The position numbers and the translations under genes were made by a program. A stretch of DNA of 47,387 bases. Origin: Candidatus Kerfeldbacteria bacterium RIFCSPHIGHO2_12_FULL_48_17 (lineage in GTDB: Bacteria > Patescibacteriota > Patescibacteriia > HO2-48-17). Each line of letters begins with the position of its first letter. Within the stretch, counting starts at the first letter, position 1. A model generated the notes under the pieces. It had not been told where the DNA came from and made no database searches. It saw only the letters and a program-made list of their open reading frames with translations. Positions 2,679-34,212 of the stretch are shown here, piece after piece. The DNA lies in contig MHKD01000011.1 in assembly GCA_001818775.1 (NCBI GenBank), positions 1 to 47,387 of the forward strand, in the 5' to 3' direction.

Positions 2679-3443
2679 TTAATCCCATCTTAAAAATTCA
2701 ATTATGGCTTCCACGATTTTTTTTTGTTCGTGGTCGTTTGTTAAAATATGCTGATTATCATTCAAGAGCAGTTGTTTTTTTCTCTCGTCTGGAGTTTTAA
2801 TGGTTTGCATTATGAAAGCACTGCTTTTTGGATGAATAAGGGGGTCCTGTAATGATTGAATCGTATATATCGGGTGAACGATATGAGAAAGCGCTTTTTT
2901 TGTTTCCTCGATGCCACGTAAAAGCTCCTTTAATCCCTTATACGGCCATACGCTATATGCGCCCGTTTCAGCGTAATATTTTGCGCCCTCAGGGTGGTCA
3001 TGCAGATTTTCTTTGTGGAATTTTTTTAGGCGGGAAAGAATGGGCAATGCTGCCCTAATAAACGTTTTGCGCCTGAGAAAAATCGGTGTGCCCAGGCATA
3101 TGATTTTTTCAACATTCTCCGGATGCTCAGCGGCGCAGGTAATCGCCAAATTTCCACCCATGGAAACACCCAGGCAGTGCACCTTTCCATATAAATGGCG
3201 CGCGGATATAGTGGTCTCGTGAATGGCCTTTTTCCAATCTTCCCATGTTACGCGCAGAAGGTCATCAGGATGTGTGCCGTGACCCGGCAACCGTGGCACG
3301 ACAACGGAAAATCCCTTCTTTTGCAGTTCCTGAGCAAGAGGTTTCACTGCACTGGGAGTGCTCGTAAACCCATGTATAATGATAATAACCTCTTCTCCTC
3401 CCTCCAGTGAAAAACCTTCCATGTTCTCGCTGTTTCCGCCCAT
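2679..3443 (-). CDS. Alpha/beta-hydrolase carboxylesterase (Est30/monoacylglycerol lipase-like)
   Basis: IHGFT oxyanion motif, LPGHG, nucleophile GVSMG, C-terminal Asp and His. Confidence 0.9.
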   Translation of the reverse strand: MGGNSENMEGFSLEGGEEVIIIIHGFTSTPSAVKPLAQELQKKGFSVVVPRLPGHGTHPDDLLRVTWEDWKKAIHETTISARHLYGKVHCLGVSMGGNLAITCAAEHPENVEKIICLGTPIFLRRKTFIRAALPILSRLKKFHKENLHDHPEGAKYYAETGAYSVWPYKGLKELLRGIEETKKALSHIVHPIYTIQSLQDPLIHPKSSAFIMQTIKTPDERKKQLLLNDNQHILTNDHEQKKIVEAIIEFLRWD

Positions 3444-3469
3444 AATATTATTCGCTAAAAATCAACCAG

Positions 3470-3844
3470 CTACTTTAACATACTCTTGATTTTTTCGACA
3501 AGTTTATTGGGGTCAATCTGCGCTTTCACGATGTACTCTTTGGCGCCCAGCTTTTTCGCCTGGGCTATGGTGCTATCTTTCGTGAGGTTGGAAAAGATCC
3601 AGACTGGAATATCGCGGGTTTTTTTGTTTTTTTTGAGTTGCCTGAGGACTTCAATGCCGTCCATGTCGGGCATGACGAGATCAAGAAGTATGATTTTCGG
3701 CTGCTGACTTTTCGCCACAACCAGAGCGTCTTTTCCCCTCCGCGCGCCGATGGTACGCAGGTCTTCCAACTCAAATTTTGTTGAGTAGAGAAGTATTTGA
3801 TCGGGGTCGTCCTCTACGAGGAGAACATCCGGATTATCTTTCAT
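3470..3844 (-). CDS. Single-domain response regulator (CheY-like receiver)
   Basis: LLVEDD, LLDLVMPDMDG phospho-Asp motif, GAKEYIVK. Confidence 0.93.
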   Translation of the reverse strand: MKDNPDVLLVEDDPDQILLYSTKFELEDLRTIGARRGKDALVVAKSQQPKIILLDLVMPDMDGIEVLRQLKKNKKTRDIPVWIFSNLTKDSTIAQAKKLGAKEYIVKAQIDPNKLVEKIKSMLK

Positions 3845-3854
3845 ATATTTTCGT

Positions 3855-6098
3855 TTAAGACTGAGACGATGGGTGTTTTGTTATTGCGTTTGCGCCATTA
3901 ACCTTCGTTTTTGCCGCGGGGAGTTGGATGGAAAATATTGATCCCTTGTTTTCCACGCTTTCAACTGATACTTTTCCGCCCGGGTGGTTTTCCATGATTT
4001 GCTTCACTATAAAAAGACCAAGTCCCGAACCATCGGTATACATATCTATGGCATTTTTCGCGCGCATGAATTTGTCAAAAAGTTTAGGGAGATCCGCTTT
4101 TGGTATACCGATTCCGGTATCCTCGACCGATATAATAACCGTTTGGTTTTTAGAGCTCTCGGTTTTCACGCTCACTTGTATTTTTCCTTTTGCAGTATAG
4201 CGCAAAGCATTCGATATGAGATTACCGACCGCCTGTTCAAGATATTTTATATTTGTCAGAATTTTGGGAATGGATTTGCTTGGTTGTTCAAAGATCAATT
4301 TCAGTTGCTTTTTTTCCGCTTCCAGTAAGAATTCTTTCACCACTTTTTCAAGAAATTCAACGGGATCGATGACATCCTGAAGAACGAAACCGAAATTTTC
4401 CGCGTCCATTTCAGACGCCGCAAGAATGTCATTGATGATAAAGTCAAGTTTTTTCCCCTTGGTGTACGCATTTTCTATAAATTCTTTATGTTTTTCTTTT
4501 GGCAGACGATCAAGATCACCATCACGCAACATTGATAGGGTGCCATTAATAACCGATACCGGAGTTCGGAGCTGATGTGAAGCGATATCAAGAAATTCGG
4601 AACGGATTTTCAGCAGTTTTTTGAGATGAGTATTGGTTTTTGTAAGATTTTGTGTAGCCTTGGTAACTTCAATTTGCAATAGGGCGTTGAATTTTTTTGT
4701 TTCTTCGTACAGTTGCGCGTTTACCATGGCGATGGATGCCTGATTGGCTATATTTCGCAACAGGCGCAAATCTTCCAGTGTAAATGCGTCATGGGAGAGC
4801 TTGTCACCAAAAAATATCAGTGCAATTATTTTTTTGTGGGAAATTATGGGTACAAGAACGGCGATTTTAAGTTGAGTGAGTTCTTTTTTACAGATCAGAA
4901 GTGGTGCCACATATTTTTTTGCCGTCTTTTGCGTCAGATCTTCAATTTCTTCGCGCACAAGAATATCTTTGTATTCAGTCAGAAACTGATAAAGAGAATC
5001 GTTCTTCAGGAGTTCTGTAATATCCTGATGTTTCATGCCAGCGGTTTTTTTGACTGTGCAGTAGCCATGAGTTTGTTGGTCTTTTTCTTTACAGAGTACA
5101 AAAGTGTATCGCTCCGTACCCAGAGCCTGTTTCATGGTTTTTACAATCGTTGTAATTATTTGGTTTAGCTCAAGTGTTTGGGCAAGATCACGGCCGACGC
5201 GTTCGGTGATTTCCTGTGGGTCATAGAGAGACGTGAAAAAGTAACGGTTCGCAAGTTTCAGAAACCATTTCCGTAAGTATTGAAACAGAACAATACCGGC
5301 AATGAGCGCAACCGGACCCATGATGGATTCCGGCACTATTTTTCCATAGGCCAGGTTTCCGTAGATGATGAATAAGGAGATGATTACCGTGAAGACAAGC
5401 GCCCCGCCGACAACAAATATTTTGCGGAGGAAGATGCGGATGTCAAAGAGTCGATAGCGAATCATAGCATAACCAGAAGCTGCGATAAAAAATACTGAAC
5501 TTGGCGAGTCCAAAGGAATAAATGTTTCTATACCAAACAGTGGTAATAAAAAGTTCAATGTTCCTGTTGTGATACCAAAACCATACATTCCATACATCAC
5601 ATACTTTAACTGCAATTTCAAAATACCGGAACTTTTTTTATAGGTTAGATACAGCTTACCGAGTATCCAAAATATGAGAAAAATTGAATAAAAAGAAAAT
5701 ATATTAAATCCTTTTCCAAACGTTCCTTCAAAACCACCGATAAAAGTTTTTTCCGCATTTTTTATTATAAAATCTGTATATCCGAGAATAAAAAATATAG
5801 CACCTGATAGATAAATGAGTAATATTTTGTATTTGTTTTTTCTATCGTTTATTAGAACGAGAATCCAGACCAGTGCTGATGGAGCCAGTAATGCACCTGC
5901 GGCATAGCAATTACGAACCCAGAAAGTGTACGGTTGTAATGTTATTAAAATATTTGTCACTATCCAATAAGCCGTCAACCAGGCAAAGATGGTAAAGCTA
6001 ATGTTTAAAAAGGATCGGTTTTTTAATATAGCTAATATTCCTATAATCAAGGCAAGAAAAGCAGCTAAATATATTATTGCCGACAACAGTAAATTCAT
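3855..6098 (-). CDS. Membrane sensor histidine kinase (HisKA_7TM-like N-terminus, GAF-like domain, HisKA, HATPase)
   Basis: Multi-TM N-terminus ending YAMIRYRLFDI; H-box ASHQLRTP; N-box NLISNA; G1 DTGIGI; G2 GSGLGL. Confidence 0.93.
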   Translation of the reverse strand: MNLLLSAIIYLAAFLALIIGILAILKNRSFLNISFTIFAWLTAYWIVTNILITLQPYTFWVRNCYAAGALLAPSALVWILVLINDRKNKYKILLIYLSGAIFFILGYTDFIIKNAEKTFIGGFEGTFGKGFNIFSFYSIFLIFWILGKLYLTYKKSSGILKLQLKYVMYGMYGFGITTGTLNFLLPLFGIETFIPLDSPSSVFFIAASGYAMIRYRLFDIRIFLRKIFVVGGALVFTVIISLFIIYGNLAYGKIVPESIMGPVALIAGIVLFQYLRKWFLKLANRYFFTSLYDPQEITERVGRDLAQTLELNQIITTIVKTMKQALGTERYTFVLCKEKDQQTHGYCTVKKTAGMKHQDITELLKNDSLYQFLTEYKDILVREEIEDLTQKTAKKYVAPLLICKKELTQLKIAVLVPIISHKKIIALIFFGDKLSHDAFTLEDLRLLRNIANQASIAMVNAQLYEETKKFNALLQIEVTKATQNLTKTNTHLKKLLKIRSEFLDIASHQLRTPVSVINGTLSMLRDGDLDRLPKEKHKEFIENAYTKGKKLDFIINDILAASEMDAENFGFVLQDVIDPVEFLEKVVKEFLLEAEKKQLKLIFEQPSKSIPKILTNIKYLEQAVGNLISNALRYTAKGKIQVSVKTESSKNQTVIISVEDTGIGIPKADLPKLFDKFMRAKNAIDMYTDGSGLGLFIVKQIMENHPGGKVSVESVENKGSIFSIQLPAAKTKVNGANAITKHPSSQS

Positions 6099-6099
6099 G

Positions 6100-6183
6100 C
6101 TATTTTTTTAGTTTTTCAATAAGTTTCTTGACCAGATAGTAACCTAGAAAACCTGTGCCACCAGTGACAAAGTTTTTGCTCAT
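6100..6183 (-). pseudogene. 27-aa N-terminal remnant of an NAD-dependent epimerase/SDR
   Basis: Hand translation MSKNFVTGGTGFLGYYLVKKLIEKLKK*; Rossmann TGGTGFLG motif; start overlaps the upstream stop (ATGA). Confidence 0.8.
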
Positions 6184-7370
6184 ACGAGTATTTGTGATTT
6201 AAGAGCTGTGCAGACTTCAATAAGACGATCCATGTGCTTTTGTGTGTGTGTAGCCATGACTACGCAGCGAATTCTGGCTTTGCCTTTTGGCACGACTGGC
6301 CATCTTACACAAGGTGCTAAAATACCGGCTTCGAAAAGTTTTTCCGAAAAATGAATCGCTTTTGCTTCATCGCCGATGAGTATTGGTATGATGGGTGTTT
6401 CTGTTTCCAAGACATTTAGGTTGTTCTTACGGAGGTTTTCTATCAAGTACGTAGTGTTATTTTTTAATGAACGCACTATATGTGGATTTTCTGAAATAAG
6501 ATGAATTGCTTCTAGCGTGACGGCGGAAGCCGCTGGTGGAAGTGCTGTACTGAATATATACGAACGAGCCGTGATTCGTAAATAATCTATAAGGTTTTTG
6601 GTTCCTGCTATATATCCCCCGATGCTACCAAATGCTTTACTTAAGGTGCCCATTAAAATTGGGATATCCCTAGGTGGTATTCCAAAGTGTTCTGTCACAC
6701 CACGGCCGGTTTTTCCTAAAACCCCTATAGAGTGCGCTTCGTCGACCATGAGCATTGCTCCATATTTTTTTGCCAAGTCTACTACCTCCGGCAGTGGCGC
6801 AATATCACCGTCCATACTGAAAACGGCATCCGTAACAATAATTTTTCTTTTGTTTTCATGTTTTTTGAGTATACTCTCAAGTCCGTTGATGTCTTTATGT
6901 TTGTATATTTTTACCTCTGTTTTTGCGAGAGCACAACCATCGATGATACTAGCGTGATTAAGCTCCTCGCTTATAATGAGTGTCTTTTTTTTAAAAAGCC
7001 GGAACATATTTATTCCATTAACAAGAGCTGATATCGTTCCCACGTTTGTCATGTAGCCGGTGGCAAAAACGATCGCTGACTCGGTACCAAGGAACTGAGC
7101 TAGGGATTTTTCAAGTTTTTCGTGTACATTAATGTTGCCTGATATCAGTCGAGATGCTCCAGTGCCAACTCCGTAATGTTTGATAGTTTCTATTGCAACT
7201 TGTTTAAGACGTTCATGGTTTGCCAATCCAAGATAATCATTAGAACAGAAAAGGATGATTTTTTTACCATTAATTATGATCTCCGGATCTATGGCGGAGT
7301 CAATCGTTCGAACGATAGGATAGTAGTGGTTATCCTTGATTTTTTTTAACAATTTTTCTATTTCTAACAT
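6180..7370 (-). CDS. PLP-dependent alpha-oxoamine synthase (BioF/Kbl/SPT/CqsA family)
   Basis: SNDYLGL, NHASIIDG, DEAHS, GTLSKAFG (PLP lysine). Confidence 0.92.
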   Translation of the reverse strand: MLEIEKLLKKIKDNHYYPIVRTIDSAIDPEIIINGKKIILFCSNDYLGLANHERLKQVAIETIKHYGVGTGASRLISGNINVHEKLEKSLAQFLGTESAIVFATGYMTNVGTISALVNGINMFRLFKKKTLIISEELNHASIIDGCALAKTEVKIYKHKDINGLESILKKHENKRKIIVTDAVFSMDGDIAPLPEVVDLAKKYGAMLMVDEAHSIGVLGKTGRGVTEHFGIPPRDIPILMGTLSKAFGSIGGYIAGTKNLIDYLRITARSYIFSTALPPAASAVTLEAIHLISENPHIVRSLKNNTTYLIENLRKNNLNVLETETPIIPILIGDEAKAIHFSEKLFEAGILAPCVRWPVVPKGKARIRCVVMATHTQKHMDRLIEVCTALKSQILV

Positions 7371-7394
7371 CTAAGTTTATTTTGTTCAGTGTTT

Positions 7395-8810
7395 TTAGTT
7401 TGTTTTCTGATTTGGATAGCCATATCGGTCATACACATTGCGCATGGTGATGTCATAGGTGACCAACCAACGGAGCATTCCTTCCATCTTTTTTCGTAAT
7501 CCTTCAATATTCATATATTCGTCTGATGACCAAGCCTCATTGTTTTCTCGATCACCGAGTAACAAAAGTCCGGAATATATCCCTTCTTGTTCCAACGGTA
7601 AAACCAGACTGATGTTATGTTTTTTCAGTTTGGCAGAGAAATCCTGTTGTTTATGGTAGTTTTTGAAATAATTTTTGGCCAGCAGACCCTGTTTCTTTTT
7701 TTCAAAAAATGTCCATATTTCGTCATAGAAACTTCTGGTTATGTAGATTTTTTTCGGATAGAAAAATAACTGCTCATCGGATCGTGGAACGAGACGTATG
7801 AATAATGCAGCAGTTTCCAGCTGCAATGTGCGCGCAATGCTCTCAAGGATGGCAGGGATTTTTTGATTGAGTGTTCCGGTTGTCTGCGTTTCCGCTTTAA
7901 TTTTACTGAGCAGTTCGATGATGTCTATATCATACGCCGGCCACAGACGATCGATGAGATTCCTGATGAGTTTTTTCAGAGTATCGAAGAAAAGTGTCAC
8001 TGCCAGAATCAAAACGATGAGCACTTGCCATTCCTGAACGGCTATGTAAGGACCCAGAACAGATTTCAGCAATAAAAAACCGTATATGAAGACTGACAGG
8101 GTGATAAAGAGTGAAGCCCCGTAGATGACTCCACGCCGGATGATAAGCTGTAAATCGAACAGACGGTGCCGCAGAATGGCATAGGCAAAACTTGAAAGAA
8201 AAATAAGCGAAGCGGGCACGTCAATCCAAATAAAACGGTCATAGCCGGTGAAAAGCGGCACCAGAAGGCTGAAAGCAAGAGGAAAAATGGCAAAGCCTAG
8301 TACACCAAATAGAATGATTTTAAGCTGCGGTTTATTTTTGGTAGTTGATTTTTTTAATTCCTGAATAATGCGGAAAGATAAGAGGATAATAAGGGCTGCT
8401 TGATACGCGGTGTAAAAGGGAAAGAGTACGCCATATTTACCATCGCTGTAGCCCAGAGCGTAGTTATGCACGTCGTATTTTATTAAATCATTTATCAACG
8501 GCAGTATGAAGAAAGTCGTCCCGAGGGAGACGAGAATAATAAGATACTTTTTGTTGCATTGTTGTTTTGTGAAGTATTCAAACCAAATAAGAGCTATAGG
8601 TGTCATGAAGGCAGGAATCGAGTAAGCTAGCCGCATAAAAATAATGTTCTGCATTATACCCTCTAAAGTATTGGTTAGGATGGAAAACATTATTATAAGA
8701 GCGAGCACCCCGAAAAGTCGATGTTCAATTTTTTTACCTGTTTTCAGGACAAAGATACCAAGTATCAAGCTGAAGAAAAATCCGAATATATAAATGGCGA
8801 GCGGGGGCAT
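7395..8810 (-). CDS. HisKA_7TM-like membrane sensor with C-terminal GAF-like domain, no kinase domain (paralog A)
   Basis: About 9 hydrophobic segments, YAILRHRLFDL motif shared with the kinase, LVLPL..GLLLLG GAF-like end, no H-box. Confidence 0.8.
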   Translation of the reverse strand: MPPLAIYIFGFFFSLILGIFVLKTGKKIEHRLFGVLALIIMFSILTNTLEGIMQNIIFMRLAYSIPAFMTPIALIWFEYFTKQQCNKKYLIILVSLGTTFFILPLINDLIKYDVHNYALGYSDGKYGVLFPFYTAYQAALIILLSFRIIQELKKSTTKNKPQLKIILFGVLGFAIFPLAFSLLVPLFTGYDRFIWIDVPASLIFLSSFAYAILRHRLFDLQLIIRRGVIYGASLFITLSVFIYGFLLLKSVLGPYIAVQEWQVLIVLILAVTLFFDTLKKLIRNLIDRLWPAYDIDIIELLSKIKAETQTTGTLNQKIPAILESIARTLQLETAALFIRLVPRSDEQLFFYPKKIYITRSFYDEIWTFFEKKKQGLLAKNYFKNYHKQQDFSAKLKKHNISLVLPLEQEGIYSGLLLLGDRENNEAWSSDEYMNIEGLRKKMEGMLRWLVTYDITMRNVYDRYGYPNQKTN

Positions 8811-8834
8811 AGATATGCGTTAAAAATAATTATG

Positions 8835-10259
8835 CTATCTTGCACTCTGATTTGAATGACTATATTGATCAGATAGATTGCGCATGGTGATGTCATGGGT
8901 GACCAACCAACGGAGCGTTCCTTCCATCTTTTTTCGCAAGCCGTCAATGTTTCTCAATTCATCCGGCCCCCATGCTTCACCGGTTTTTCGATTCCCAACT
9001 AACAAAAGTCCGGAATATATCCCTTCTTGTTCCAACGGTAAAACCAGACTGATGTTATGTTTTTTGAGTTTAGCAGAAAAATCTTGTTGTTTATGGTAAT
9101 TTTTATAATAGTTCCTGGCCAGCAGACCCTGCTTTTTCGTTTCAAAAAACGTCCAAATTTCCTCATAAAAACTTCTGGTTATGTAGATTTTTTTCGGATA
9201 GAAAAATAATTGTTCATCGGATCGTGGAACGAGACGTATGAATAATGCAGCAGATTCCAGCTGCAATGTGCGCGCAATGTTCTCGAGGATGGCAGGGATT
9301 TTCTGATTGAGTGTTCCGGTTGTCTGCGTTTCCGCTTCAATTTTACTGAGCAGTTCGATGATGTCTATATCATACGCCGGCCAGAATCGATTTATGACTT
9401 TCCTGATGAGATTTTTCAGGGTATCGAAGAAGAGTGTCACAGCCAGAATCAAAAGTAGGAGCACTTGCCATTCCTGAACGGCTATGTAAGGACTCAGAAC
9501 AGATTTCAGGAATAAAAAACCGTATATAAAAATTGACAGCGTGATAAAGAGCGAAGCCCCGTAGATGACTCCACGCCGGATGATAAGCTGTAAATCGAAC
9601 AGACGGTGCCGCAGGATGGCATAGGCAAAACTTGAGAGGAAAATAAGTGATGCTGGAATCTGAAGCATAACAAGGTGATTATAGCCAATGACAAGAGGGA
9701 GTAAAAGGCTGAACACAAGAGGGAAAATTGCAAAGCCTACCACACCAAATAGAATGATTTTAAGCTGCAGTTTATTTTTGGTAGTCGATTTTTTTAATTC
9801 CTGAATAATGCGAAAAACTAGCAAAATAAAAAGAGCCGCTTGATACGCGGTGTAAAAAGGCAAGAGCACACCACTCTTACCGTCAGTGTAGTAGTCTAGG
9901 GCGTAATTATGCACGTCGTATATTATTAACTTATCTATTAACGGCACTATAAAGAAAATTGTCCCTAAAAAGATGAGAACAGCCAGATATTTTTTGTTGC
10001 AGTGCTGTTTCGTAAAGTATTCAAACCAAATAAGAGCTACAGGCGTCATTAAAGCGGCTGCTGAGTAAGTAAGTTCTGTAAAAGTAATACTTCGCAACAC
10101 TCCCATAAGGATATTGAACAATATCCACAGCATTATTATCAGTGACAGAAGACCAAAGAGTTTGTGTTCTATCTTTCGCCCGGCCCTTAAAACAAAAATT
10201 CCGAGCGCAAGACTGAAAAAAAATGCAAAAATGTAGATAATGAGTGGGATCATAGACAT
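8835..10259 (-). CDS. HisKA_7TM-like membrane sensor with C-terminal GAF-like domain, no kinase domain (paralog B)
   Basis: Tandem paralog of 7395-8810 with near-identical C-terminal half. Confidence 0.8.
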   Translation of the reverse strand: MSMIPLIIYIFAFFFSLALGIFVLRAGRKIEHKLFGLLSLIIMLWILFNILMGVLRSITFTELTYSAAALMTPVALIWFEYFTKQHCNKKYLAVLIFLGTIFFIVPLIDKLIIYDVHNYALDYYTDGKSGVLLPFYTAYQAALFILLVFRIIQELKKSTTKNKLQLKIILFGVVGFAIFPLVFSLLLPLVIGYNHLVMLQIPASLIFLSSFAYAILRHRLFDLQLIIRRGVIYGASLFITLSIFIYGFLFLKSVLSPYIAVQEWQVLLLLILAVTLFFDTLKNLIRKVINRFWPAYDIDIIELLSKIEAETQTTGTLNQKIPAILENIARTLQLESAALFIRLVPRSDEQLFFYPKKIYITRSFYEEIWTFFETKKQGLLARNYYKNYHKQQDFSAKLKKHNISLVLPLEQEGIYSGLLLVGNRKTGEAWGPDELRNIDGLRKKMEGTLRWLVTHDITMRNLSDQYSHSNQSAR

Positions 10260-10412
10260 GCGTTAAGAATAAATAAAATCCTGAAGACGCCCATCTCTGC
10301 TTAACACAGTATCTTTTCTGGTAAGTTTGTCAAACCGTCAGCGTCTCCCAACAAAAAATTTCATAGATTTCGGCCATATTCCACAAATATGTAAACAGCG
10401 GCTGACAATTGT

Positions 10413-11834
10413 TTAAACGCGTCTGTCCACAATCCTTTTTTCTTTCAATTCACTTTCCATACCCAGTGCGTTGATGAGCAGTTGGCGATCATGCATGTTT
10501 ACCACAGGGCGCACCGCGAGTTCTCGGGCTACATATTCTTCCACCATAACATCACAGGCGGTGCATTCCTCCCCGTGCACACAGGCGACATTCACATGAA
10601 GTTCATCCAACTCAAACACGTCATTATCTTTTTTACGAATTTCCACCTGCCATTCATCTATCTCTTTCATTCCATTTAATAAAGGGTAAAAAGCGTTGAG
10701 ATTCACCAGTTCGCCTTTCACTTTGCTCAATCGTAGTTCCTTGTGTTCGGATTTTCGTTCAATTTCGTAGTGTAAACGCGGCGTCGTTCGCCCGCAGTGC
10801 GTACATGGCTCGTATGTTAATCCTGCGCACATATCCCCTGTCCGGTAACGCATCACCGTTGAACCACGCCAGTCCAGAGCAGTGTACACTATCTCACCCG
10901 GTTGCCCTTCTTTGACACGCTGTCCTTCTTCATCAACCAGTTCTACAAATTCAAGGTCTGGGTAGAGGTGATAGCCACTTTCTTCATGGCACTGCACCCA
11001 GGCTGTTTTCGCTTCCGTTGAGGCAAAAGTTGATAATATCGTTACGTCGGGAAACATTCCTTTGATTTTTTCGCGGAGTCCAGGTGAAACCCTTTCGCCG
11101 CCAAAAATTATGTGCCGAAGTTTTGGAAAGTTTCTTCCCTGGCGTTTTGCTTCTTTTACAAGATGATAACCATAGCCCGGTAAGGATATAAGAATCGTTG
11201 CTTCCATTTTTTGCAGCGCGTTCAGAATTTTTTCAGTACCGAGAATTTTACCACCGCCTGTATGAAGACAGCGTATTCCGACTGCTTCGGTTGCTTTTTG
11301 CACCTGCCAAAAGGCAAGATGGGGAGCAAAAGGGAAGGCATTGACTACTATGTCTTCTTTAGCGAGACCGGCTGTTTGAAAAATACGGCTGCCGGTTTGC
11401 GCAAGGGTCGCCAGATCGCGTGCTGAATAGAGAAAGGGAATTTGGGCGGAGCTTCGGCCGGTTGTGAAGTGTATGTGAATCGGTTTGAATTCTCTTTCCA
11501 GCGATTCATGTAGATTACCTGTGATCATGTATTTTATCAGGCGCGATTTTGGGTAATGTTTTTTTATTGCTGCCGTGTCGGGCTGCAGAATAAACTGACG
11601 GGGTTTGTCAGGAATATTTTCTGTTGGGAGAATATCCTGTTTGGAAATAAGAGGAATTTTTTGCAGATCGCCCGTGTTTTGTATATCCGACGGTTTTATT
11701 GCGTGTTTTTTCAGGTGATCGCGGAGGAAAGGATGGAAAGGCAAAAGGTGCTTTATAAAAAAGCGCAGTTTTTTGTTTTGGATATTTTCGATTTTTCGCC
11801 TGGGTAGGCGCGACAGGGTTTCCCAGTTTTTCAT
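10413..11834 (-). CDS. Phenylacetate-CoA ligase (PaaK)-like adenylate-forming enzyme
   Basis: HFTTGRSS P-loop-like motif, FGGE, STFASTE, GEIVYT, RYRTGD. Confidence 0.85.
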   Translation of the reverse strand: MKNWETLSRLPRRKIENIQNKKLRFFIKHLLPFHPFLRDHLKKHAIKPSDIQNTGDLQKIPLISKQDILPTENIPDKPRQFILQPDTAAIKKHYPKSRLIKYMITGNLHESLEREFKPIHIHFTTGRSSAQIPFLYSARDLATLAQTGSRIFQTAGLAKEDIVVNAFPFAPHLAFWQVQKATEAVGIRCLHTGGGKILGTEKILNALQKMEATILISLPGYGYHLVKEAKRQGRNFPKLRHIIFGGERVSPGLREKIKGMFPDVTILSTFASTEAKTAWVQCHEESGYHLYPDLEFVELVDEEGQRVKEGQPGEIVYTALDWRGSTVMRYRTGDMCAGLTYEPCTHCGRTTPRLHYEIERKSEHKELRLSKVKGELVNLNAFYPLLNGMKEIDEWQVEIRKKDNDVFELDELHVNVACVHGEECTACDVMVEEYVARELAVRPVVNMHDRQLLINALGMESELKEKRIVDRRV

Positions 11835-11973: not shown

Positions 11974-12726
11974 ATGAATGCTAATATTCCTCTCAAATCA
12001 AAGTTAAAAACCCTGGGCCTGAGTGATAATGAGGCTGATGTGTATATTTTTCTTTTGCATGAAGGTCAGGCCTCGGCCAAAGAGATTTTTCGTTCCTTGT
12101 CTTTGACGCGGGCGACTATTTACAATATTTTGGATGACCTCACGGATTTTGGTCTTTTGTCTTCTGTTCAGCAGAGTAACAAAAAAATCTATATCTGTGA
12201 ATCTCCAACGAATCTGCAGAATTTTATTCACAAACGCTTTGAACAGCTTAAAATACAGGAAAGATTGTTGGCTGATAGTATGTCGCAATTTATGGCGGAA
12301 TTTCAAAAGAGTCGAACGGACTGGCCTCAGGTGACATTTTTTGAAGGTATGGAGGGTTTGATTGCCTGTCAGGATGAGCTGATACGGAGTAGGCCGAAAA
12401 AAGCTTACGAAATAGTGAATATGGATCTTAATCCTTTTAAGGTGGATTTAAGAGAGGCTGAACATACTAAACATAAAATTCAGTTTGAATCGATCTATAC
12501 CTCAGAAAAGGGCGAAACCTTAGATCCTAAAAGTAAAGACAGTTATTTTCTACCGCGATCAGTTTTTTCAAATTTTAATATAGAAATTGTTATTTACCGT
12601 AACAGAGTGCTTATCAGTACGGTAGAACATAAAATCAGAACCATCGTTATAGACAATGAAGAAATCGCAGATGCTTTTTTGGATATTTTTCATATCATTA
12701 AGGAAAAAGCAAAAGAGAAAAAATAA
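11974..12726 (+). CDS. TrmB-family transcriptional regulator
   Basis: LGLSDNEADVYIFLL...RATIYNILDDL wHTH; FFEGMEG motif. Confidence 0.88.
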   Translation: MNANIPLKSKLKTLGLSDNEADVYIFLLHEGQASAKEIFRSLSLTRATIYNILDDLTDFGLLSSVQQSNKKIYICESPTNLQNFIHKRFEQLKIQERLLADSMSQFMAEFQKSRTDWPQVTFFEGMEGLIACQDELIRSRPKKAYEIVNMDLNPFKVDLREAEHTKHKIQFESIYTSEKGETLDPKSKDSYFLPRSVFSNFNIEIVIYRNRVLISTVEHKIRTIVIDNEEIADAFLDIFHIIKEKAKEKK

Positions 12727-13143: not shown

Positions 13144-13494
13144 ATGCAACGGAGGGAAAAATTACCAGCCCAGCCTGATTATCCACAGGATGATATATAC
13201 ATACAGGACGCTCAAAAAGACAGTTACCACCTGAGGCAGTTTATAAGAACGCTTGCCAATATCACACAAGAGAGACACATTCACGAAATTTTTTCTTCAC
13301 TTTATGATCCTTTTGAGATAAAGGGATTGGGAAAAAGATTTTGTTTTCTGAAACAAATGCTCAACGATATCAAAGAGCCACCGCACCCCCTGCTTCGACC
13401 GGACGATCGTTTTGCCTGGGCCAAGGTGGCTCTTATGTTTCGTTATAAAAAAAGTAAATCCCTTCTTAAAAAAATTATAGAAAAAGCTGACTGA
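13144..13494 (+). CDS. Hypothetical protein; 3' third lies in direct repeat copy 1
   Basis: 116-aa ORF with upstream TTGACA promoter-like element; no family recognised. Confidence 0.4.
   Translation: MQRREKLPAQPDYPQDDIYIQDAQKDSYHLRQFIRTLANITQERHIHEIFSSLYDPFEIKGLGKRFCFLKQMLNDIKEPPHPLLRPDDRFAWAKVALMFRYKKSKSLLKKIIEKAD
13365..13485 (+). repeat. 121-bp direct repeat, copy 1
   Basis: Matches 16223-16343 with 2 mismatches by manual alignment. Confidence 0.95.
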
Positions 13495-13871
13495 AGTTTC
13501 AGGCAGCTTTTCGGGATTATATCTTTTTGCCAAGGTTGAGATACTGATGGGTAGCAAGGATGTTTCAGAGTCGGCGCAGAAGCGGCTGCTTTTTTAAGGA
13601 TGAGTAGAGCCGTCGCTTCTCAAAATGTGGATAACTTTACTCTTGTGCAATCCTCTAATTTTGTTATTATCAATGTAGATGTTTTTCAGATTATCCGAAC
13701 TCAACAGCGTAGCGACGCAAAAACCATAAGAGGTTTATATGTGTAAACGTTCTTTGAAAACATGTTTGATGACACTGGTTCTCATCTGTCTACCCGGACC
13801 GGTCGTCTGGTCGGACACAGGACAGACGCGGTTATAGCGTTGCTAAAACAAGCAGAAAGGAGGAGTTCATC

Positions 13872-15224
13872 ATGTCAACTAGACTCAGCGCACCCGTAGA
13901 CGTCCAAATTGAGCTGACACAAACTTGTAATTGGCAGTGTCGTCATTGTTACAATTTCTGGCGTCCAGCTCAGACAACAACGAATCTCAGTCAACATCTT
14001 TCCTGCGATAATATTATTCACATCGTGAAGGAGCTCGCCTCGAATCAAGTCCCATCAATCACAATTACCGGCGGTGAACCGTTTTCTCGGCGTAGAGAAA
14101 TTTTTATGCTACTGGAAATGACTAAGAAGGCTGGTATTCACGCATCAATCAACACAAATCTTAGTCTTGTGGGAAAAGAAGACATTGAAAAGCTCGTTGA
14201 CGAATATAACAATGTATCGATTCTCTTCTCACTTTTGTCAGCAGATGCGGCAGAGCACGAACGTCTTGCCGGTGCTCCGAGTGGCACTTACACCAAAGTA
14301 ATTAACACAGCAGCCTTAATTATCCAGCGTGGAATTCCAGTAAGTTTAAATATGGTTCTCATGCGAGAAAATCTTCATGCAATGGAGATCACTGCCCGCC
14401 TTGCTAAAAGACTTGGTACGCGCACATTTTGCGCGACCAAGGTACTCCCTAATACTCATGCGCCTGATGGTACACTTCTTCTTTCAGCAGAGGAGGTGCA
14501 TTGGTCTCTCGCTGAACTGATGCGGATTGAGGAACTGCTCGATATCCCTGTTGACATTTTAGGTTGTTATCCAAGATGTCTCCTTGTGGGCACGTCTGCG
14601 CACCAACGTTTTTCACATCGCACCTGCGTTGCTGGCTACACAACCGTTACTATCGGCGCCGATGGAGGTGTGCGACCATGCTCCCACATGGAAATGAGTT
14701 ACGGGAGTATATTTCACGAACCGCTCATTGATATCTGGGAGAAAATGGACGGCTGGCGCGAGGGTGAATTTATTCCAGAACAATGTCGTAATTGTTTGTT
14801 CCTGTCCGCATGCAGAGGAGGTTGTCGTGTTAATACACTTACGCCTGGTTTGCACAATATGGATTTTTATGCCGACCCACAGCGTCTGACCAGCTTACCA
14901 CAAAAATGTCTTACTCCCCGTATACCGGAAGAGACAAGTGATATTGTAGCCAAGTCTATAATGTGTCCGCAAGTGAAGTTTCGCAAGGAACCTTTTGGAG
15001 CGTTGATTTACACAACCAACCCCCTTGCCATCATGTTGGTAAATCACAGCACGATCGACTTTCTTATGAATGTGGCGGAAAAAAGAGAGGATTTTGACTT
15101 ATTTTCCTTCCTCGAGCAATCAGGTGCGAGAACTGAGGCAGAACGGCGTGGTGTCAAGTACCTTTATCAAAAACTCGTTCGGAAGGGATTTCTTATAACA
15201 CTAACCGAGCATGAAAGGAGGTGA
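13872..15224 (+). CDS. Radical SAM/SPASM peptide maturase with C-terminal RRE (PqqD-like) domain
   Basis: CNWQCRHC (CxxxCxxC), TGGEP, SPASM cysteines (TCVAG..VRPC..CRNC..CRGGC), C-terminal wHTH-like extension; SD AGAAAGGAGG. Confidence 0.92.
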   Translation: MSTRLSAPVDVQIELTQTCNWQCRHCYNFWRPAQTTTNLSQHLSCDNIIHIVKELASNQVPSITITGGEPFSRRREIFMLLEMTKKAGIHASINTNLSLVGKEDIEKLVDEYNNVSILFSLLSADAAEHERLAGAPSGTYTKVINTAALIIQRGIPVSLNMVLMRENLHAMEITARLAKRLGTRTFCATKVLPNTHAPDGTLLLSAEEVHWSLAELMRIEELLDIPVDILGCYPRCLLVGTSAHQRFSHRTCVAGYTTVTIGADGGVRPCSHMEMSYGSIFHEPLIDIWEKMDGWREGEFIPEQCRNCLFLSACRGGCRVNTLTPGLHNMDFYADPQRLTSLPQKCLTPRIPEETSDIVAKSIMCPQVKFRKEPFGALIYTTNPLAIMLVNHSTIDFLMNVAEKREDFDLFSFLEQSGARTEAERRGVKYLYQKLVRKGFLITLTEHERR

Positions 15225-24358: not shown

Positions 24359-24431
24359 GCCGTTGTAGCTCAGTTGGTAGAGCAGCTCCATGGTAAGGAG
24401 CAGGTCGGCGGTTCAAATCCGCCCAACGGCT
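24359..24431 (+). tRNA. tRNA-Thr(GGT)
   Basis: GCCGTTG/CAACGGC acceptor stem, GCTCC-ATGGTAA-GGAGC anticodon arm, GTTCAAATC T-loop. Confidence 0.95.
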
Positions 24432-24473
24432 CAGAGTTGTATGAGATTGAACTTTAAAAGACAAAGCAGTATG

Positions 24474-24502
24474 TTTACATGTACCTAGGGGTTTGGTATA
24501 AT
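24474..24502 (+). promoter_or_regulatory. Promoter of a probably leaderless LAGLIDADG-like gene
   Basis: TTTACA-N17-TATAAT with extended TG; ATG begins at 24509. Confidence 0.6.
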
Positions 24503-24508
24503 TTTCTC

Positions 24509-25159
24509 ATGGCGACAATTAACGAAAAAGAATATGAAAATATACGAAACCTCTACCAAGAGCGACGATTAAGTATGCAAGAAATAAGTGAAATATATAA
24601 AGTCCCACTTGATGCAATTGTTTATTTCTTCAAAAGACATAAAATTCCAAGGCGTAATCGCACCGAAAGCAACAGAATATTATTCGAAAGAAAAGCCACT
24701 GCCTTCAAAGTAAAGGAAAAGCTGTCTGCACATGAGGAAAAATTGAGAATCGCCGGAGTAATGCTCTATTGGGCTGAAGGATCAAATGCATTGACCGCGG
24801 ACAAGGTTGACTTTGTCAACAGTAATCCTGAAATGATTATGCTTTTTATGCAATTTCTCAGGAAAATCTGCAGAATTGATGAAACCAAGCTTCGTGTGCT
24901 TCTGTATTGCTATGCAAATCAAAATAAAGAATACCTGAAAGATTTTTGGTCTTCTGTAACAAATATACCAATTACAAAATTCACAAAACCTTATGTAAGG
25001 GAGGACTATAAACCAGAGAAAGAAGGACGAATGAAATATGGTCTTATACACATAAGGTATTATGAAAAAAAGCTACTTCTTTTACTCTGGAAATGGCGAA
25101 AGGAAATAGCTAAAGAATTAGGGGTGGATACCAAAGTGGTTAAATGGACTAGACTGTAA
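24509..25159 (+). CDS. HTH + degenerate LAGLIDADG-like protein overlapping tRNA-Tyr
   Basis: N-terminal HTH-like region, GVMLYWAEGS..FVNSNPEMI motif; stop TAA lies in the tRNA-Tyr anticodon loop. Confidence 0.7.
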   Translation: MATINEKEYENIRNLYQERRLSMQEISEIYKVPLDAIVYFFKRHKIPRRNRTESNRILFERKATAFKVKEKLSAHEEKLRIAGVMLYWAEGSNALTADKVDFVNSNPEMIMLFMQFLRKICRIDETKLRVLLYCYANQNKEYLKDFWSSVTNIPITKFTKPYVREDYKPEKEGRMKYGLIHIRYYEKKLLLLLWKWRKEIAKELGVDTKVVKWTRL

Positions 25160-25204
25160 ATCTAGTGGCCAACGCCTTCGTAGGTTCGAATCCTACTCCA
25201 CCCA
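25122..25204 (+). tRNA. tRNA-Tyr(GTA)
   Basis: GGGTGGA/TCCACCC acceptor, CTAGA-CTGTAAA-TCTAG anticodon arm, long variable arm, GTTCGAATC. Confidence 0.95.
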
Positions 25205-25237
25205 CAGAAAATTAACTTCACGCCTTACATAACAACT

Positions 25238-26002
25238 ATGGAAATATTTTTCAGCATTTTGCCGTTTGTGCTCGCGCTTTTGATTCTTGGTCTGCGCGTT
25301 ATTAACCAGTACGAACAGGGGGTTGTGCTCACGCTTGGTCGCTACACCGGCACCCGAAAACCCGGCCTCACCTGGGTTTTTATTGGCATTCAGCGCATGA
25401 ACAAAGTTGATATGCGCATTACCACGATTGATATTCCCAAGCAGGAAGTGATAACGAAAGACAATGTTCCGGTCATGATCAACGCCGTCGTCTATTTTCA
25501 GGTGAAGTCGGCCGAGAATGCGACGCTGAATATTAAGGATTATACGTTGGCCGTTTCACAATACTCACAGGCCGCGCTGCGTGATGTGATCGGTGGTGTG
25601 GAACTCGATGCCATTTTGTCTGAGCGGGAAAAAATCGCTGAAGAAATTCAGAACATCGTGAAAAAGGCGACCGACCCCTGGGGCATTTATGTCACGGATA
25701 TTAAAATTCAGGACATTGAACTGCCGGCCGATATGAAACGCATCATGGCCAAACAGGCTGAGTCTGAGCGCGAACGCCGGGCCGTGATTATTCGCGCCGA
25801 AGGTGAATACGCGGCTGCCGAGCAACTTTCGCGAGCGGCCGAAAAGCTCAGCCAGATTCCGGGAGGTATTTCCATGCGTACCCTGCAAACCATAGAAAAA
25901 CTCAGTGGCGATCCATCAAAAGCCACCATTTTCGCCCTACCTATTGAGTTTTATGAAGGCATAAAGACCCTAACGGAGTATTTCAAGGCCAAGGGGAAAT
26001 AG
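25238..26002 (+). CDS. SPFH/band 7 (stomatin-like) protein
   Basis: QYEQGVVLTLG, QEVITKDNV, QAESERERRAVII.AEGE. Confidence 0.93.
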   Translation: MEIFFSILPFVLALLILGLRVINQYEQGVVLTLGRYTGTRKPGLTWVFIGIQRMNKVDMRITTIDIPKQEVITKDNVPVMINAVVYFQVKSAENATLNIKDYTLAVSQYSQAALRDVIGGVELDAILSEREKIAEEIQNIVKKATDPWGIYVTDIKIQDIELPADMKRIMAKQAESERERRAVIIRAEGEYAAAEQLSRAAEKLSQIPGGISMRTLQTIEKLSGDPSKATIFALPIEFYEGIKTLTEYFKAKGK

Positions 26003-26093
26003 GTAATCTCGGCCGTAAGGCTTGAAAAAATCCGTTATTTATGCTAGAGTAAAAAAGTTCAAAACGGAAACAGGGGAGTTACGTTTGGCCCGC

Positions 26094-26165
26094 GCCGGAA
26101 TAGCTCAATGGTAGAGCAACTGTTTTGTAAACAGTAGGTCGTCGGTTCAAATCCGACTTCCGGCT
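26094..26165 (+). tRNA. tRNA-Thr(TGT)
   Basis: GCCGGAA/TTCCGGC acceptor, ACTGT-TTTGTAA-ACAGT anticodon arm. Confidence 0.95.
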
Positions 26166-26227
26166 CACACGCCGCCCAAGCGGGTTGTGCGCTAATAGTG
26201 GATAGTAAATTATTTTTTTATAACGTT

Positions 26228-26389
26228 ATGTCACAAGACAATCGCATTGACCTGGAATGCACCGAATGCAAACACAAAACCCACACCAGCAAAAAGAATA
26301 AGAAAAAACTTCGCAACGCCGGTCGTTTGGAATTGATGAAGCATTGCAAATTCTGCAAAAAGCATACACTGCATAAGGAGACGAAGTAA
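26228..26389 (+). CDS. rpmG: 50S ribosomal protein L33
   Basis: [35 protein letters not shown]; start ATG 26228. Confidence 0.95.
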
Positions 26390-26484
26390 TAAGGAGATTT
26401 CGGGTTTCGTAAAGTATTTACCGCGGCACCTTGATATGATAACCTAGATATACAGTTATGTGACTATTGTTTTATATCCAATTC

Positions 26485-27156
26485 ATGGTCAGGAAACCAC
26501 AAGAGTACAAAAAAGTCCGAAACCTCAGAAAGACGGGAAAATCTTTAGCCGAAATTAGTAGGAAACTGAGAATATCAAAATCAACGGCTTCTTTATGGTG
26601 CAGTAACGTGGTATTGTCGAAAAGGGCAAAGGATATTCTTAAATGGAAAGGGGAAAAGGGAAGAGCCAGGGGATCAAAGACTTTAAGAAACAAACGTAAA
26701 GCGGTGGAAAGAGAGATTCAGAAGAAGGCCTACCACGTTGTGAAAGGAATGAAATTTAACAAAAGCATATATGAAGCACTTTGTACGCTACTGTATATAG
26801 CTGAAGGAGTAACAGAAGTGAGTTATGGTCCCGGCTTTACAAATTCTGATCCGGGGTTGGTGCGGTTATATCTTTATTATTTAAGAAATTCATTCAACCT
26901 TGATGAGGGAAAATTCAGAGTTTGTGTTCATCTCCATAGCTATCACAATAAAAATAAGCAACTTACCTATTGGTCAAAAGTAACAAAAATTCCCCTCAGC
27001 CAATTTTTAAAACCGTATGAAAAAAAGAACGGTGGCAAGAGAATAAGAGAGAACTATCAGGGCTGTGTATCAATACGATATTACGATTCAAAGATTTCAA
27101 AAGAGCTGAGATACATATACTTGGCTTTATTAAAAAGGCATGGGCGCGTAGCTTAA
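26485..27156 (+). CDS. HTH + degenerate LAGLIDADG-like protein overlapping tRNA-Trp
   Basis: GKSLAEISRKLRISKSTASLWC HTH; LYIAEG..FTNSDP motif; stop lies inside the tRNA-Trp D-arm. Confidence 0.72.
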   Translation: MVRKPQEYKKVRNLRKTGKSLAEISRKLRISKSTASLWCSNVVLSKRAKDILKWKGEKGRARGSKTLRNKRKAVEREIQKKAYHVVKGMKFNKSIYEALCTLLYIAEGVTEVSYGPGFTNSDPGLVRLYLYYLRNSFNLDEGKFRVCVHLHSYHNKNKQLTYWSKVTKIPLSQFLKPYEKKNGGKRIRENYQGCVSIRYYDSKISKELRYIYLALLKRHGRVA

Positions 27157-27215
27157 TTGGCTAAAGCATCGGTCTCCAAAACCGAGGACTGTAGGTTCAA
27201 GTCCTACCGCGCCTG
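27142..27215 (+). tRNA. tRNA-Trp(CCA)
   Basis: GGGCGCG/CGCGCCT acceptor, TCGGT-CTCCAAA-ACCGA anticodon arm, GTTCAAGTC. Confidence 0.93.
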
Positions 27216-33690: not shown

Positions 33691-33979
33691 GGGAAGGAGG
33701 GATTGGTAAATTATAGGGAAGAACCAGGCTTTTGGGTCAGGTTCTTCATTTATTTTTGGCTTTACAAAGGGGTGTTTTTATTGTATTATGACGATACGTT
33801 TTTGTATGTGTTTTCTCGAAAAAATTAGGTGCGGACCCCGAATTATCGGGCCCCGCAAACGAGGTGCGGAAGGAGTGAAACGACTGAGCACGCGTTTGTG
33901 GGGAAAAGGAGAAATACCGCGAAAGCCGGAGTGAACAAACGAATGTTTGGTCACACAGGCTGGAGCGAAATTTCGACGT

Positions 33980-34053
33980 GGGGTTGTAGCTCAGTTGGTT
34001 AGAGCGTCTGCCTGTCACGCAGAAGGTCGCGGGTTCGAGTCCCGTCAACCCCG
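33980..34053 (+). tRNA. tRNA-Asp(GTC)
   Basis: GGGGTTG/CAACCCC acceptor, TCTGC-CTGTCAC-GCAGA anticodon arm, GTTCGAGTC. Confidence 0.96.
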
Positions 34054-34212
34054 CTGATATAAAAAAGAATGCCATATGGGCATCTTTTTTATTACATTGA
34101 GATGATGGAGGGACGAGAAGGCGACCGTAGCGCTTGCGCCAGTGGCGCAAGGAAACGGCGCCTGGCTGCGAAGGAACTCCGAGTCGGCTTGCGACGAGGA
34201 GTGGGTGAGCAG

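Follow-up and report, generated by a model that had tools for sequence, protein, structure and literature searches.

A Patescibacteria clade of alpha-oxoamine synthases encoded beside HisKA_7TM sensor kinases: a candidate synthase-receptor module

We analyzed a 47,387-nt stretch of DNA (the window; GenBank contig MHKD01000011.1) from the genome of Candidatus Kerfeldbacteria bacterium RIFCSPHIGHO2_12_FULL_48_17 (GCA_001818775.1; 1.22 Mb, 45 contigs, 91% complete; label G000, with the window as its contig C11). A cluster of eight head-to-tail reading frames at positions 2679-11834 of the minus strand encodes an alpha-oxoamine synthase (AOS), a sensor histidine kinase (HK), a response regulator (RR), and two kinase-less membrane proteins with seven transmembrane helices (7TM), named 7TMa and 7TMb. 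The AOS was found to belong to a clade of its own in Patescibacteria whose genes are linked to genes for HisKA_7TM sensor kinases. We consider it an evenly balanced proposition that the two form a synthase-receptor module specific to Patescibacteria, in which a long-chain aminoketone would be made from a scavenged fatty acid and sensed by the 7TM kinase. An earlier inspection of the letters alone (the sequence-only reading) had proposed a quorum-sensing-like system of synthase, sensor, regulator, and possible quencher; its synthase-sensor core is supported by the comparative genomics described here.

RESULTS

Kinase-linked synthases in Patescibacteria

AOS homologs were searched in two sets of 401 genomes, one from the class and one from the phylum (G-numbers denote genomes and L-numbers the loci examined). 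A scripted census covered 68 Patescibacteria AOS open reading frames (ORFs), including a paralog on contig C40 of the genome under study and excluding the window AOS. A HisKA_7TM protein, counted when at least 400 aa long and encoded on the same strand no more than three genes downstream of the AOS, was present at 28 of the 68 loci, and a kinase core was recognized by BLAST in 24 of the 28. At 24 of the 28 loci the sensor gene directly adjoined the AOS gene, with gaps of -8 to 100 nt (median, 5 nt); at the other four, a single gene intervened, encoding a short-chain dehydrogenase/reductase (SDR) at two loci (L038 and L060), a formyltransferase at one (L059), and an unidentified product at one (L120). 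A dehydrogenase resembling threonine dehydrogenase (Tdh) adjoined the AOS at 17 of the 68 loci, and the two contexts never occurred together. The adjacency persists down to ~37-41% AOS identity and across 20 family codes, of which the class sample supplies 14 and the phylum sample adds 6. At least 20 of the 401 class genomes carry the kinase-linked pair, the genome under study counted.

Among the 28 kinase-linked loci, an SDR gene lay beside the AOS gene at 2, a PlsC gene upstream at 2, and a ligase gene upstream at 6; the sensor is the sole near-constant partner of the AOS. The remaining loci of the same clade mostly reach a contig edge within 0.4-3 kb (L040, L049, L053, L065, and L066), and at L047 the kinase lies five genes from the AOS. 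A pattern scan of genome contigs with AOS added one further Patescibacteria locus (L066), the other matches being BioF or Kbl of other phyla.

In a phylogenetic tree of AOS sequences, all 27 kinase-linked rows fell into one clade of 33 with an SH-aLRT support of 99, and the window AOS lay inside it. A Kbl clade of 19 rows (SH-aLRT 98) contained the Tdh-linked rows, the reference Kbl, and the C40 paralog, and the BioD-linked BioF of Nitrospira, Planctomycetia, and Thermodesulfovibrionia formed a third, separate group (SH-aLRT 89). The references were a Yersinia BioF (in bioB-bioF-bioC), a Phyllobacterium Kbl (with tdh), HemA, and a Bacteroides fragilis AOS encoded next to a TetR gene, which branched outside the Patescibacteria clade; a 1068-aa fusion protein (L071) was omitted. 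The relation of the AOS to serine palmitoyltransferase (SPT) and CqsA, neither of which is named in the tree, rests on hidden Markov model and Protein Data Bank scores. The sequence-only reading had suggested comparing the synthase phylogenetically and examining whether its neighborhood is conserved. Both comparisons single out the same group: the kinase-linked AOS are a clade apart from Kbl and BioD-linked BioF, and the linkage is kept within that one clade, against 0 of 17 Tdh-linked loci.

Some loci depart from the simple pair. In G213 (L062:10133-12965), the AOS is followed by a 618-aa 7TM protein in which no kinase core was detected, and two genes further on lies the gene for a kinase fragment of 196 aa; the kinase may be split. 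In G366 (L054:9412-14746), the AOS is followed by a kinase-less 7TM-GAF protein of 488 aa, with a full 747-aa kinase three genes further. In G009, the AOS-linked kinase is followed by a clear Trp-repressor-like gene (E 2e-17; L039:6944-7255).

The synthase compared with BioF, Kbl, and SPT

The window AOS missed the cut-offs of both Kbl models of NCBIfam (NF005394, 414.4 bits against 460; TIGR01822, 332.3 against 493) and of all three SPT models (NF047600, 385.8 against 640; NF047599, 327.3 against 500; NF047603, 256 against 670). Its scores with the bioF and CqsA-type models are weighed in the Discussion. The closest solved structures were bifunctional AOS/KBL enzymes (8s1y and 7poa, 309 bits), followed by an SPT (3a2b, 277 bits) and a Kbl (275 bits). 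Residues H139, S185, D210, H213, K245 (the pyridoxal 5'-phosphate [PLP] lysine), and R368 are near-invariant across 62 aligned AOS, and the set is intact in the window AOS; we take the role of each to be that known from work on BioF and SPT. At thresholds of at least 85% and at least 80% conservation, no residue passed as telling the kinase-linked AOS from Kbl.

The genes bioA, bioB, and bioD gave 0 matches each in this 91% complete genome, so that the earlier remark that no other biotin genes lie nearby is borne out genome-wide; bioA and bioB were likewise found in none of five other carriers of the pair (93-100% complete). A second AOS is encoded on contig C40 (C40:6972-9352; L045), where the gene for a 396-aa Zn-dependent dehydrogenase is followed by that for a 395-aa Kbl-type AOS that passes the Kbl model (568 bits; cut-off 460). 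These genes are the Tdh-Kbl pair of this genome, and no Tdh gene was found near the window AOS. Since this separate pair sits on another contig, the window AOS, judged from sequence comparison, is not Kbl, and because none of bioA, bioB, and bioD turned up in the genome, it is, judged also from its context and clade, not a biotin enzyme. A bona fide BioF or Kbl, the outcome that the sequence-only reading had named as its own undoing, thus does not hold by context. Twelve of 13 scanned clade relatives scored below every curated NCBIfam cut-off, and 1 of the 13 reached that of bioF. The closest relatives outside Patescibacteria (43-47% identity) adjoin BioD.

The sensor kinase and its kinase-less relatives

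The HisKA_7TM domain (PF16927; gathering threshold, 28.6 bits) was matched by residues 1-299 of the HK with 29.6 bits. GAF (PF01590, 31.4 bits; cut-off, 22.4), HisKA (52.6 bits), and HATPase_c (96.4 bits) were also matched. Residues H508, N630, D660, G662, G664, G692, and G694, which represent the phospho-accepting histidine together with the N, G1, and G2 boxes, do not vary among 61 aligned kinases. The full-length HK is 39.5% identical to the kinase at the equivalent position in G019, and an RR gene directly follows the kinase gene at three other loci (L051, L082, and L099). All three membrane proteins of the cluster pass the HisKA_7TM threshold, in agreement with the earlier claim of a receptor family other than that of CqsS.

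The HK and 7TMa/7TMb are 28-30% identical over ~350 aa, and the three 7TM regions are homologous. 7TMa and 7TMb are 80% identical to each other, with most of the change in the 7TM part and an overall dN/dS of 0.20, which on these sequences marks them as duplicates kept by purifying selection. No Pfam match to GAF was obtained in the C-terminal 181 aa of either protein even at E ≤ 10. An AlphaFold2 model of 7TMb built with 128 homologs (pLDDT 89.2, pTM 0.80) has a predicted order of seven helices, two more long helices, and an alpha/beta domain at residues 297-463, with a predicted beta-hairpin (111-126) between helices 4 and 5. In a Foldseek search, residues 297-463 matched the GAF structures 3p01, 4g3k, and 3k2n (TM-score 0.60-0.65 on the target), and the helical bundle gave weak, generic matches to eukaryotic 7TM receptors. 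GAF models were also matched by 14 of 49 mid-sized 7TMb homologs. From the modeled fold and these homologs, 7TMa and 7TMb are predicted to carry a GAF fold after the membrane part, as the sequence-only reading had described them.

A HMMER scan of 1.84 billion representatives with 7TMb gave 3799 relatives at E ≤ 0.001, against 4 from a word-based search. Among 153 of these relatives, lengths had two peaks, one at 450-550 aa for kinase-less proteins and one at 700-750 aa for kinases. In a tree of 54 7TM+GAF proteins, 7TMa and 7TMb stood on their own long branch; by this sequence comparison they are not recent copies of the neighboring kinase's sensor. One to three kinase-less HisKA_7TM genes, encoding 207-290 aa or ~470-500 aa with GAF, were found upstream of the AOS at 10 loci, and a kinase was also encoded downstream at 8 of them. 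7TM kinases are common in the class, with matches in 17 of 41 genomes and up to 6 per genome. A complex prediction for HK residues 1-470 with 7TMb (score 0.02, mark 0.32) speaks neither for nor against pairing.

In G019, the closest relative (L038:307-3859), the three genes directly upstream of the ligase gene encode polytopic membrane proteins of 437, 369, and 375 aa, with 7-9 helices predicted; one of these shows weak similarity (E 4e-5) to proteins that are 7TM only. This locus thus has sensor-like paralogs as well, but they flank the ligase on its opposite side.

A truncated SDR gene between synthase and kinase

The SDR remnant noted in the sequence-only reading is real. Its ATG overlaps the AOS stop codon (ATGA), a gap of 1 nt separates its own stop from the HK start, and its 27 codons bear a TGGxGFxG Rossmann motif and align with the N termini of full-length SDRs from three genomes. 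In G019, whose AOS is 64% identical, a full 333-aa SDR of the epimerase/3-beta-hydroxysteroid dehydrogenase (3-beta-HSD) type occupies the identical position with the same ATGA overlap, and a full-length SDR gene likewise stands in the stub's position in G229 and at L066. A tblastn search of the present genome with the G019 SDR returned nothing beyond the stub.

The DNA of the stretch was found mostly in groundwater and soil metagenome runs. An independent soil-metagenome contig spans positions 5664-6377 with 0 differences, and because an independent run carries the same sequence, the stub junction is not an assembly artifact. In three of four runs (X2, X3, and X5), one contig each matches the window down to position 6102, where the stub's stop codon begins, and is unlike it from there on; another X2 contig bridges this junction unchanged. 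Read by eye, the divergent continuation keeps the stub frame open over the ten visible codons. These data suggest that strains with and without the SDR deletion co-exist and that sister strains may keep a longer gene. Loose contig ends like that at 6102 were also seen at 3608, 5529, and 8665.

A classical short-chain dehydrogenase of 264 aa (adh_short_C2, 224 bits) is encoded elsewhere in the window, at 36785-37579; it is unrelated to the lost 3-beta-HSD-type SDR.

Ligase, hydrolase, and lipid context

The best NCBIfam matches of the ligase were FlxY (160.9 bits) and PaaK (128.8 bits), both far below cut-offs. It missed the PaaK models TIGR02155 (89.4 bits against 646.3) and NF041878 (128.8 against 700), and its closest solved structure was a phenylacetate-CoA ligase (83 bits); on these scores it is PaaK-like in fold family only. 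Seventy of the 401 class genomes match the ligase, 66 of them with orthologs at ~50% identity. In all 14 other genomes examined (L106-L119), the gene lies next to 1-3 genes for PlsC-like acyltransferases in a block ordered NusA, H+-pyrophosphatase, 1-3 PlsC, ligase, with trigger factor beyond in 13 of the 14 and, in some, patatin and CarS-like genes between ligase and trigger factor. In the genome under study, the NusA and trigger factor genes are adjacent (C21:23461-28614), and neither the pyrophosphatase nor PlsC (PF01553) was found. PF01553 acyltransferases were also not found in G001, G019, G045, and G194, and part of the class seems to be without the usual acyltransferase route to phospholipids. 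The ligase is most simply understood, from its family and gene context, as a putative fatty-acyl activating enzyme of lipid salvage relocated beside the AOS, and its substrate is probably an acyl (fatty) acid.

A FadD-like AMP-ligase of 570-605 aa is encoded upstream of the AOS at six loci (L053, L058, L083, L084, L087, and L088) and also upstream of one Tdh-linked Kbl (L095). That two unrelated ligase families lie upstream of AOS of this clade suggests that the same step was recruited repeatedly. No acyl carrier protein (ACP) gene was found between the FadD-like ligase and the AOS at L087, L058, and L053; a 96-aa ORF at L087 encodes a small membrane protein on the opposite strand. PlsC-like genes lie upstream of the AOS at L040, L049, L082, and L085. 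Ketoacyl synthase and ACP were not found in the genome, nor was CoaE; a coenzyme A (CoA) pool is inferred from the CoA-dependent Kbl.

The closest solved structures of the hydrolase are thermostable monoacylglycerol lipases (103 bits, full length), and for this reason it fits a supply of fatty acid; the quencher role first proposed for this esterase is without support. Homologs of 28-33% identity are encoded within a few genes of the AOS at L058, L060, and L063.

Layout of the cluster and other features of the window

The co-oriented gene order of the sequence-only reading was recovered in full (Table 1). From the hydrolase to 7TMa, the gaps are 26, 10, 1, -4, 24, and 24 nt, and the ligase gene follows 153 nt off; the earlier figure of at most 25 nt between 10259 and 2679 is thus right for every junction but one, which measures 26 nt. 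The TrmB gene is divergent, as reported earlier, and starts 139 nt upstream of the ligase gene; its linkage is not conserved, no TrmB gene having been seen beside the AOS-kinase pair at the other loci examined, and TrmB has ~10 paralogous places in the genome. Nothing interpretable came from a promoter and terminator scan, which showed no terminator-like site between the genes. Rfam gave no match inside the cluster, its only matches in the window being five tRNAs elsewhere.

Table 1. Genes of the cluster and the divergent regulator gene (positions in the window)
Feature	Position	Strand	Basis
PaaK/F390-synthetase-like adenylating ligase, 473 aa	10413..11834	-	AMP-binding 42.9 bits
7TMa, kinase-less HisKA_7TM + 2 transmembrane helices + GAF-like, 474 aa	8835..10259	-	HisKA_7TM 37.0 bits
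7TMb, kinase-less HisKA_7TM + 2 transmembrane helices + GAF-like, 471 aa	7395..8810	-	HisKA_7TM 40.4 bits
AOS, 396 aa	6180..7370	-	Aminotran_1_2 214.7 bits; clade linked to 7TM kinases
SDR stub, 27 codons, 3-beta-HSD/epimerase type, N-terminal Rossmann motif only	6100..6183	-	
Sensor HK, HisKA_7TM + GAF + HisKA + HATPase_c, 747 aa	3855..6098	-	Pfam
Receiver-only RR, 124 aa	3470..3844	-	Response_reg 80.7 bits, without output domain
Alpha/beta hydrolase, 254 aa, monoacylglycerol-lipase/carboxylesterase-like	2679..3443	-	Hydrolase_4 71.8 bits
TrmB-family regulator, 250 aa, divergent	11974..12726	+	TrmB 51.8 bits

Three other regions of the window were noted. At 13144-15224, the gene for a radical SAM/SPASM protein of 450 aa (13872-15224) lies downstream of an ORF whose 116-aa product gave a weak Trp-repressor-like match (E 0.0036). 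At 33025-35313, a gene for a hemolysin-III/PAQR-type 7TM protein (221 aa) is followed by a tRNA (33980-34053) and then by a RhuM-family gene (308 aa, 318 bits); a tRNA next to RhuM may be the sign of an inserted element. Four of the five window tRNAs lie at 24359-27215 among short ORFs and genes for an SPFH/Band-7 protein and a VTT/DedA-like protein.

DISCUSSION

A candidate synthase-receptor module

The candidate module would use scavenged acyl chains, since the organism is without a fatty-acid synthase. The monoacylglycerol-lipase-like hydrolase may release a fatty acid, which the adenylating ligase, going by its family and its usual PlsC context, would activate. The PLP-dependent AOS could then join the acyl thioester to a small amino acid and yield a hydrophobic alpha-aminoketone, as the chemistry of its family and the intact catalytic residues suggest. 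In some relatives, the 3-beta-HSD-type SDR would further reduce the ketone, giving an amino alcohol; with only a stub of the SDR gene, the route would stop at the ketone here. The conserved tight gene order suggests that the HisKA_7TM/GAF input of the presumably co-transcribed kinase senses the product and that the kinase phosphorylates the receiver-only RR. More speculatively, the kinase-less 7TM-GAF paralogs may bind, buffer, or move the same ligand. That the AOS and the HisKA_7TM sensor are constant while reductase, acyltransferase, and ligase come and go favors a product made to be sensed; in this genome, the SDR has decayed while the AOS and the kinase are intact.

We propose a fuller version only tentatively and think it rather unlikely as a whole: a widespread chemical signaling system of Patescibacteria's own, in which a dedicated AOS clade would make an aminoketone or amino alcohol from host-scavenged fatty acid, HisKA_7TM kinases would read it and steer the life cycle, and the kinase-less paralogs would serve as co-receptors or buffers. 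Since the host has to provide the acyl chain, such a signal would convey how much host lipid is on offer or how densely symbionts are attached.

Several observations weigh against a synthase-receptor module. The window AOS passes the bioF model of NCBIfam (TIGR00858, 455.5 bits against 426.45), and it stands far from CqsA/LqsA, which the sequence-only reading had named for comparison: the CqsA-type model NF005526 gave 196.7 bits against a cut-off of 428, and CqsA structures, at 102 bits, stood near the bottom of the 54 matched solved AOS sequences. No ACP or CoaE was found that would account for the acyl carrier. The AOS-adjacent kinases are clustered, not monophyletic, in the 7TM+GAF tree (11 label changes, where shuffling gave 18.3 on average; three rows mislabeled "unlinked" are short duplicate loci of the genome under study and G019), and a dedicated receptor lineage is therefore unsupported. 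The ligase, counted earlier as a cluster member, is linked to the AOS here and in G019 only, and lies beside PlsC instead in the other 14 genomes. The extras found in relatives, a FadD-like ligase, a 3-beta-HSD-type SDR, and a PlsC-like acyltransferase, match the needs of a sphingoid/ceramide-like pathway. No RNA run was listed as containing the stretch. As for the sample, flanks were examined at 47 of 83 class AOS places, all 20 phylum places, and L066; the carriers are partly kin and not independent, and counts such as 28 of 68 overstate the number of independent events. The AOS tree is a maximum likelihood tree from an IQ-TREE quick search of 62 sequences with SH-aLRT support only.

Alternative explanations

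The main rival, a membrane-lipid pathway, is possible, though we would not expect it to prove correct. From scavenged fatty acid, an SPT-like AOS would make a sphingoid or amino-lipid base, which the SDR would reduce and the PlsC-like enzyme acylate; the product would be structural, and the 7TM kinase would monitor the membrane or lipid pool and control the pathway. An SPT (3a2b) is indeed the second-best solved relative, the score with one SPT model reaches 385.8 bits, and FadD-like ligases, 3-beta-HSD/epimerase-type SDRs, and PlsC-like acyltransferases flank members of the clade. The PaaK-like ligase is elsewhere a lipid-cluster gene, and the failure to find PF01553 acyltransferases in the genome under study and in G019 points to an unusual lipid metabolism. 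However, the SPT cut-offs are widely missed, SDR and PlsC genes each accompany only 2 of the 28 kinase-linked loci, and the SDR is a stub here. The module is patchily distributed (at least 20 of the 401 class genomes), as would be expected of an accessory system more than of a core membrane lipid, and a full-text literature search for Patescibacteria with serine palmitoyltransferase or lipid scavenging returned nothing relevant.

Co-transcription might also carry no ligand link at all, the AOS having a metabolic role of broad substrate range in amino-acid or acyl-CoA metabolism and the kinase merely sharing its promoter or controlling the AOS in answer to an unrelated external cue. The bifunctional AOS/KBL enzymes that are the nearest solved relatives, the abundance of 7TM kinases in the class, and the mixed ancestry of the AOS-adjacent kinases fit this explanation, which we nevertheless judge unlikely: the adjacency is kept, with genes that overlap or nearly touch, down to ~37-41% AOS identity and in 20 family codes, Tdh-linked Kbl paralogs have no kinase in 17 of 17 cases, and kinase-less copies of the sensor domain gather at the locus too.

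Less probable still is that the module is decaying in this genome, with the loss of the SDR as its mark, whatever the role in relatives. The reduction of that gene to 27 codons and the alternative continuation at 6102 in three of four runs, which hints at sister strains with a longer gene, agree with decay; against it, AOS, kinase, and RR keep all catalytic motifs, and 7TMa and 7TMb have diverged at a dN/dS of 0.20. As 26 of the 28 kinase-linked relatives are without an SDR beside the AOS, the SDR would be dispensable for the core.

An ordinary BioF of biotin synthesis, to which the bioF score and the BioD-adjoining relatives outside the phylum point, is highly improbable given the missing bioA, bioB, and bioD, the lack of bioA and bioB in the five other carriers, the single relative among 13 that reaches the bioF cut-off, and the separation of the clade from BioD-linked BioF.

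Significance

The conserved synthase-sensor pair is a concrete, clonable system. To our knowledge, the HisKA_7TM domain has no known ligand, and we know of almost nothing on how the ultra-small, host-dependent Patescibacteria sense their surroundings. If the signaling interpretation is true, the product would be the first ligand for this domain; if the lipid pathway is true, a phylum regarded as dependent on lipid scavenging would prove to make lipids of the sphingoid type. The AOS is in either case an annotation trap, as the BioF model accepts both it and its nearest relative although neither genome has a biotin pathway. In the main text of the open full-text literature naming HisKA_7TM, PMC5847659 among it, no ligand was given in the parts seen. 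Full-text searches returned no paper joining the candidate phyla radiation to 8-amino-7-oxononanoate synthase; nor was there anything relevant among the matches listed for Patescibacteria with quorum sensing or oxoamine synthase.

Comparison with known systems

By sequence, the arrangement is best filed as a new, putative variation on the signaling design that pairs a synthase with a membrane kinase, with a different AOS clade and receptor family; the known part, by analogy, would be an AOS-made signal read by a membrane kinase, as in the alpha-hydroxyketone quorum sensing of Vibrio (CqsA/CqsS) and Legionella (LqsA/LqsS). Like those systems and LqsA/LqsS/LqsR, the cluster places a gene for a PLP enzyme of the AOS fold beside one for a polytopic membrane HK, and like LqsR, a receiver protein is encoded within it. 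According to the portion of PMC3376566 available to us, CqsA makes an amino-ketone from acyl-CoA and an amino compound, a dehydrogenase step follows, and the amino form also binds CqsS; most CqsA-type clusters consist of synthase and sensor kinase only. The amino-ketone proposed here would thus resemble a compound that is itself a ligand there, and the SDR of some relatives would parallel the dehydrogenase step of the CqsA route (PMC3376566). Unlike CqsA and LqsA, the AOS lies outside the CqsA family, and the receptor input is HisKA_7TM plus GAF, whereas CqsS is described as a 6-TM protein in what we saw of PMC4821796. Kinase-less copies of the sensor domain also set the cluster apart from CqsA/CqsS and Lqs, as does its phylum, Patescibacteria.

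BioF and Kbl are the closest sequence families, and the catalytic His/Ser/Asp/His/Lys/Arg set is shared with them, but the window AOS differs in the biotin pathway not found, the separate Tdh-Kbl pair, a clade of its own, and relatives of which 12 in 13 fall under every cut-off. Caulobacter has a sphingolipid cluster with an AMP-ligase-type ACP synthetase and an epimerase-family reductase. The combination of AOS, acyl-activating enzyme, and epimerase/3-beta-HSD-type reductase, with an acyltransferase in some relatives, likewise recalls bacterial SPT pathways; in contrast to these, SPT models are missed, reductase and acyltransferase are not conserved, the sensor kinase is constant, and no ACP was found.

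A further parallel is LgsGA3 of B. fragilis, reported in 2026, in which, as far as the accessible part of PMC13080023 goes, a TetR regulator senses a ligand that an AOS makes. The same arrangement of an AOS gene followed by a TetR/AcrR regulator gene was observed on a mobilizable 44-kb B. fragilis plasmid (L105, CP103266.1:8253-10036). The candidate module shares with LgsGA3 the proposal that an AOS not belonging to the CqsA family makes a small molecule which is released and serves as ligand of the regulator next to it. The sensor of LgsGA3, however, is a cytoplasmic TetR repressor and its AOS branches outside the Patescibacteria clade, whereas the sensor encoded here is a membrane kinase.

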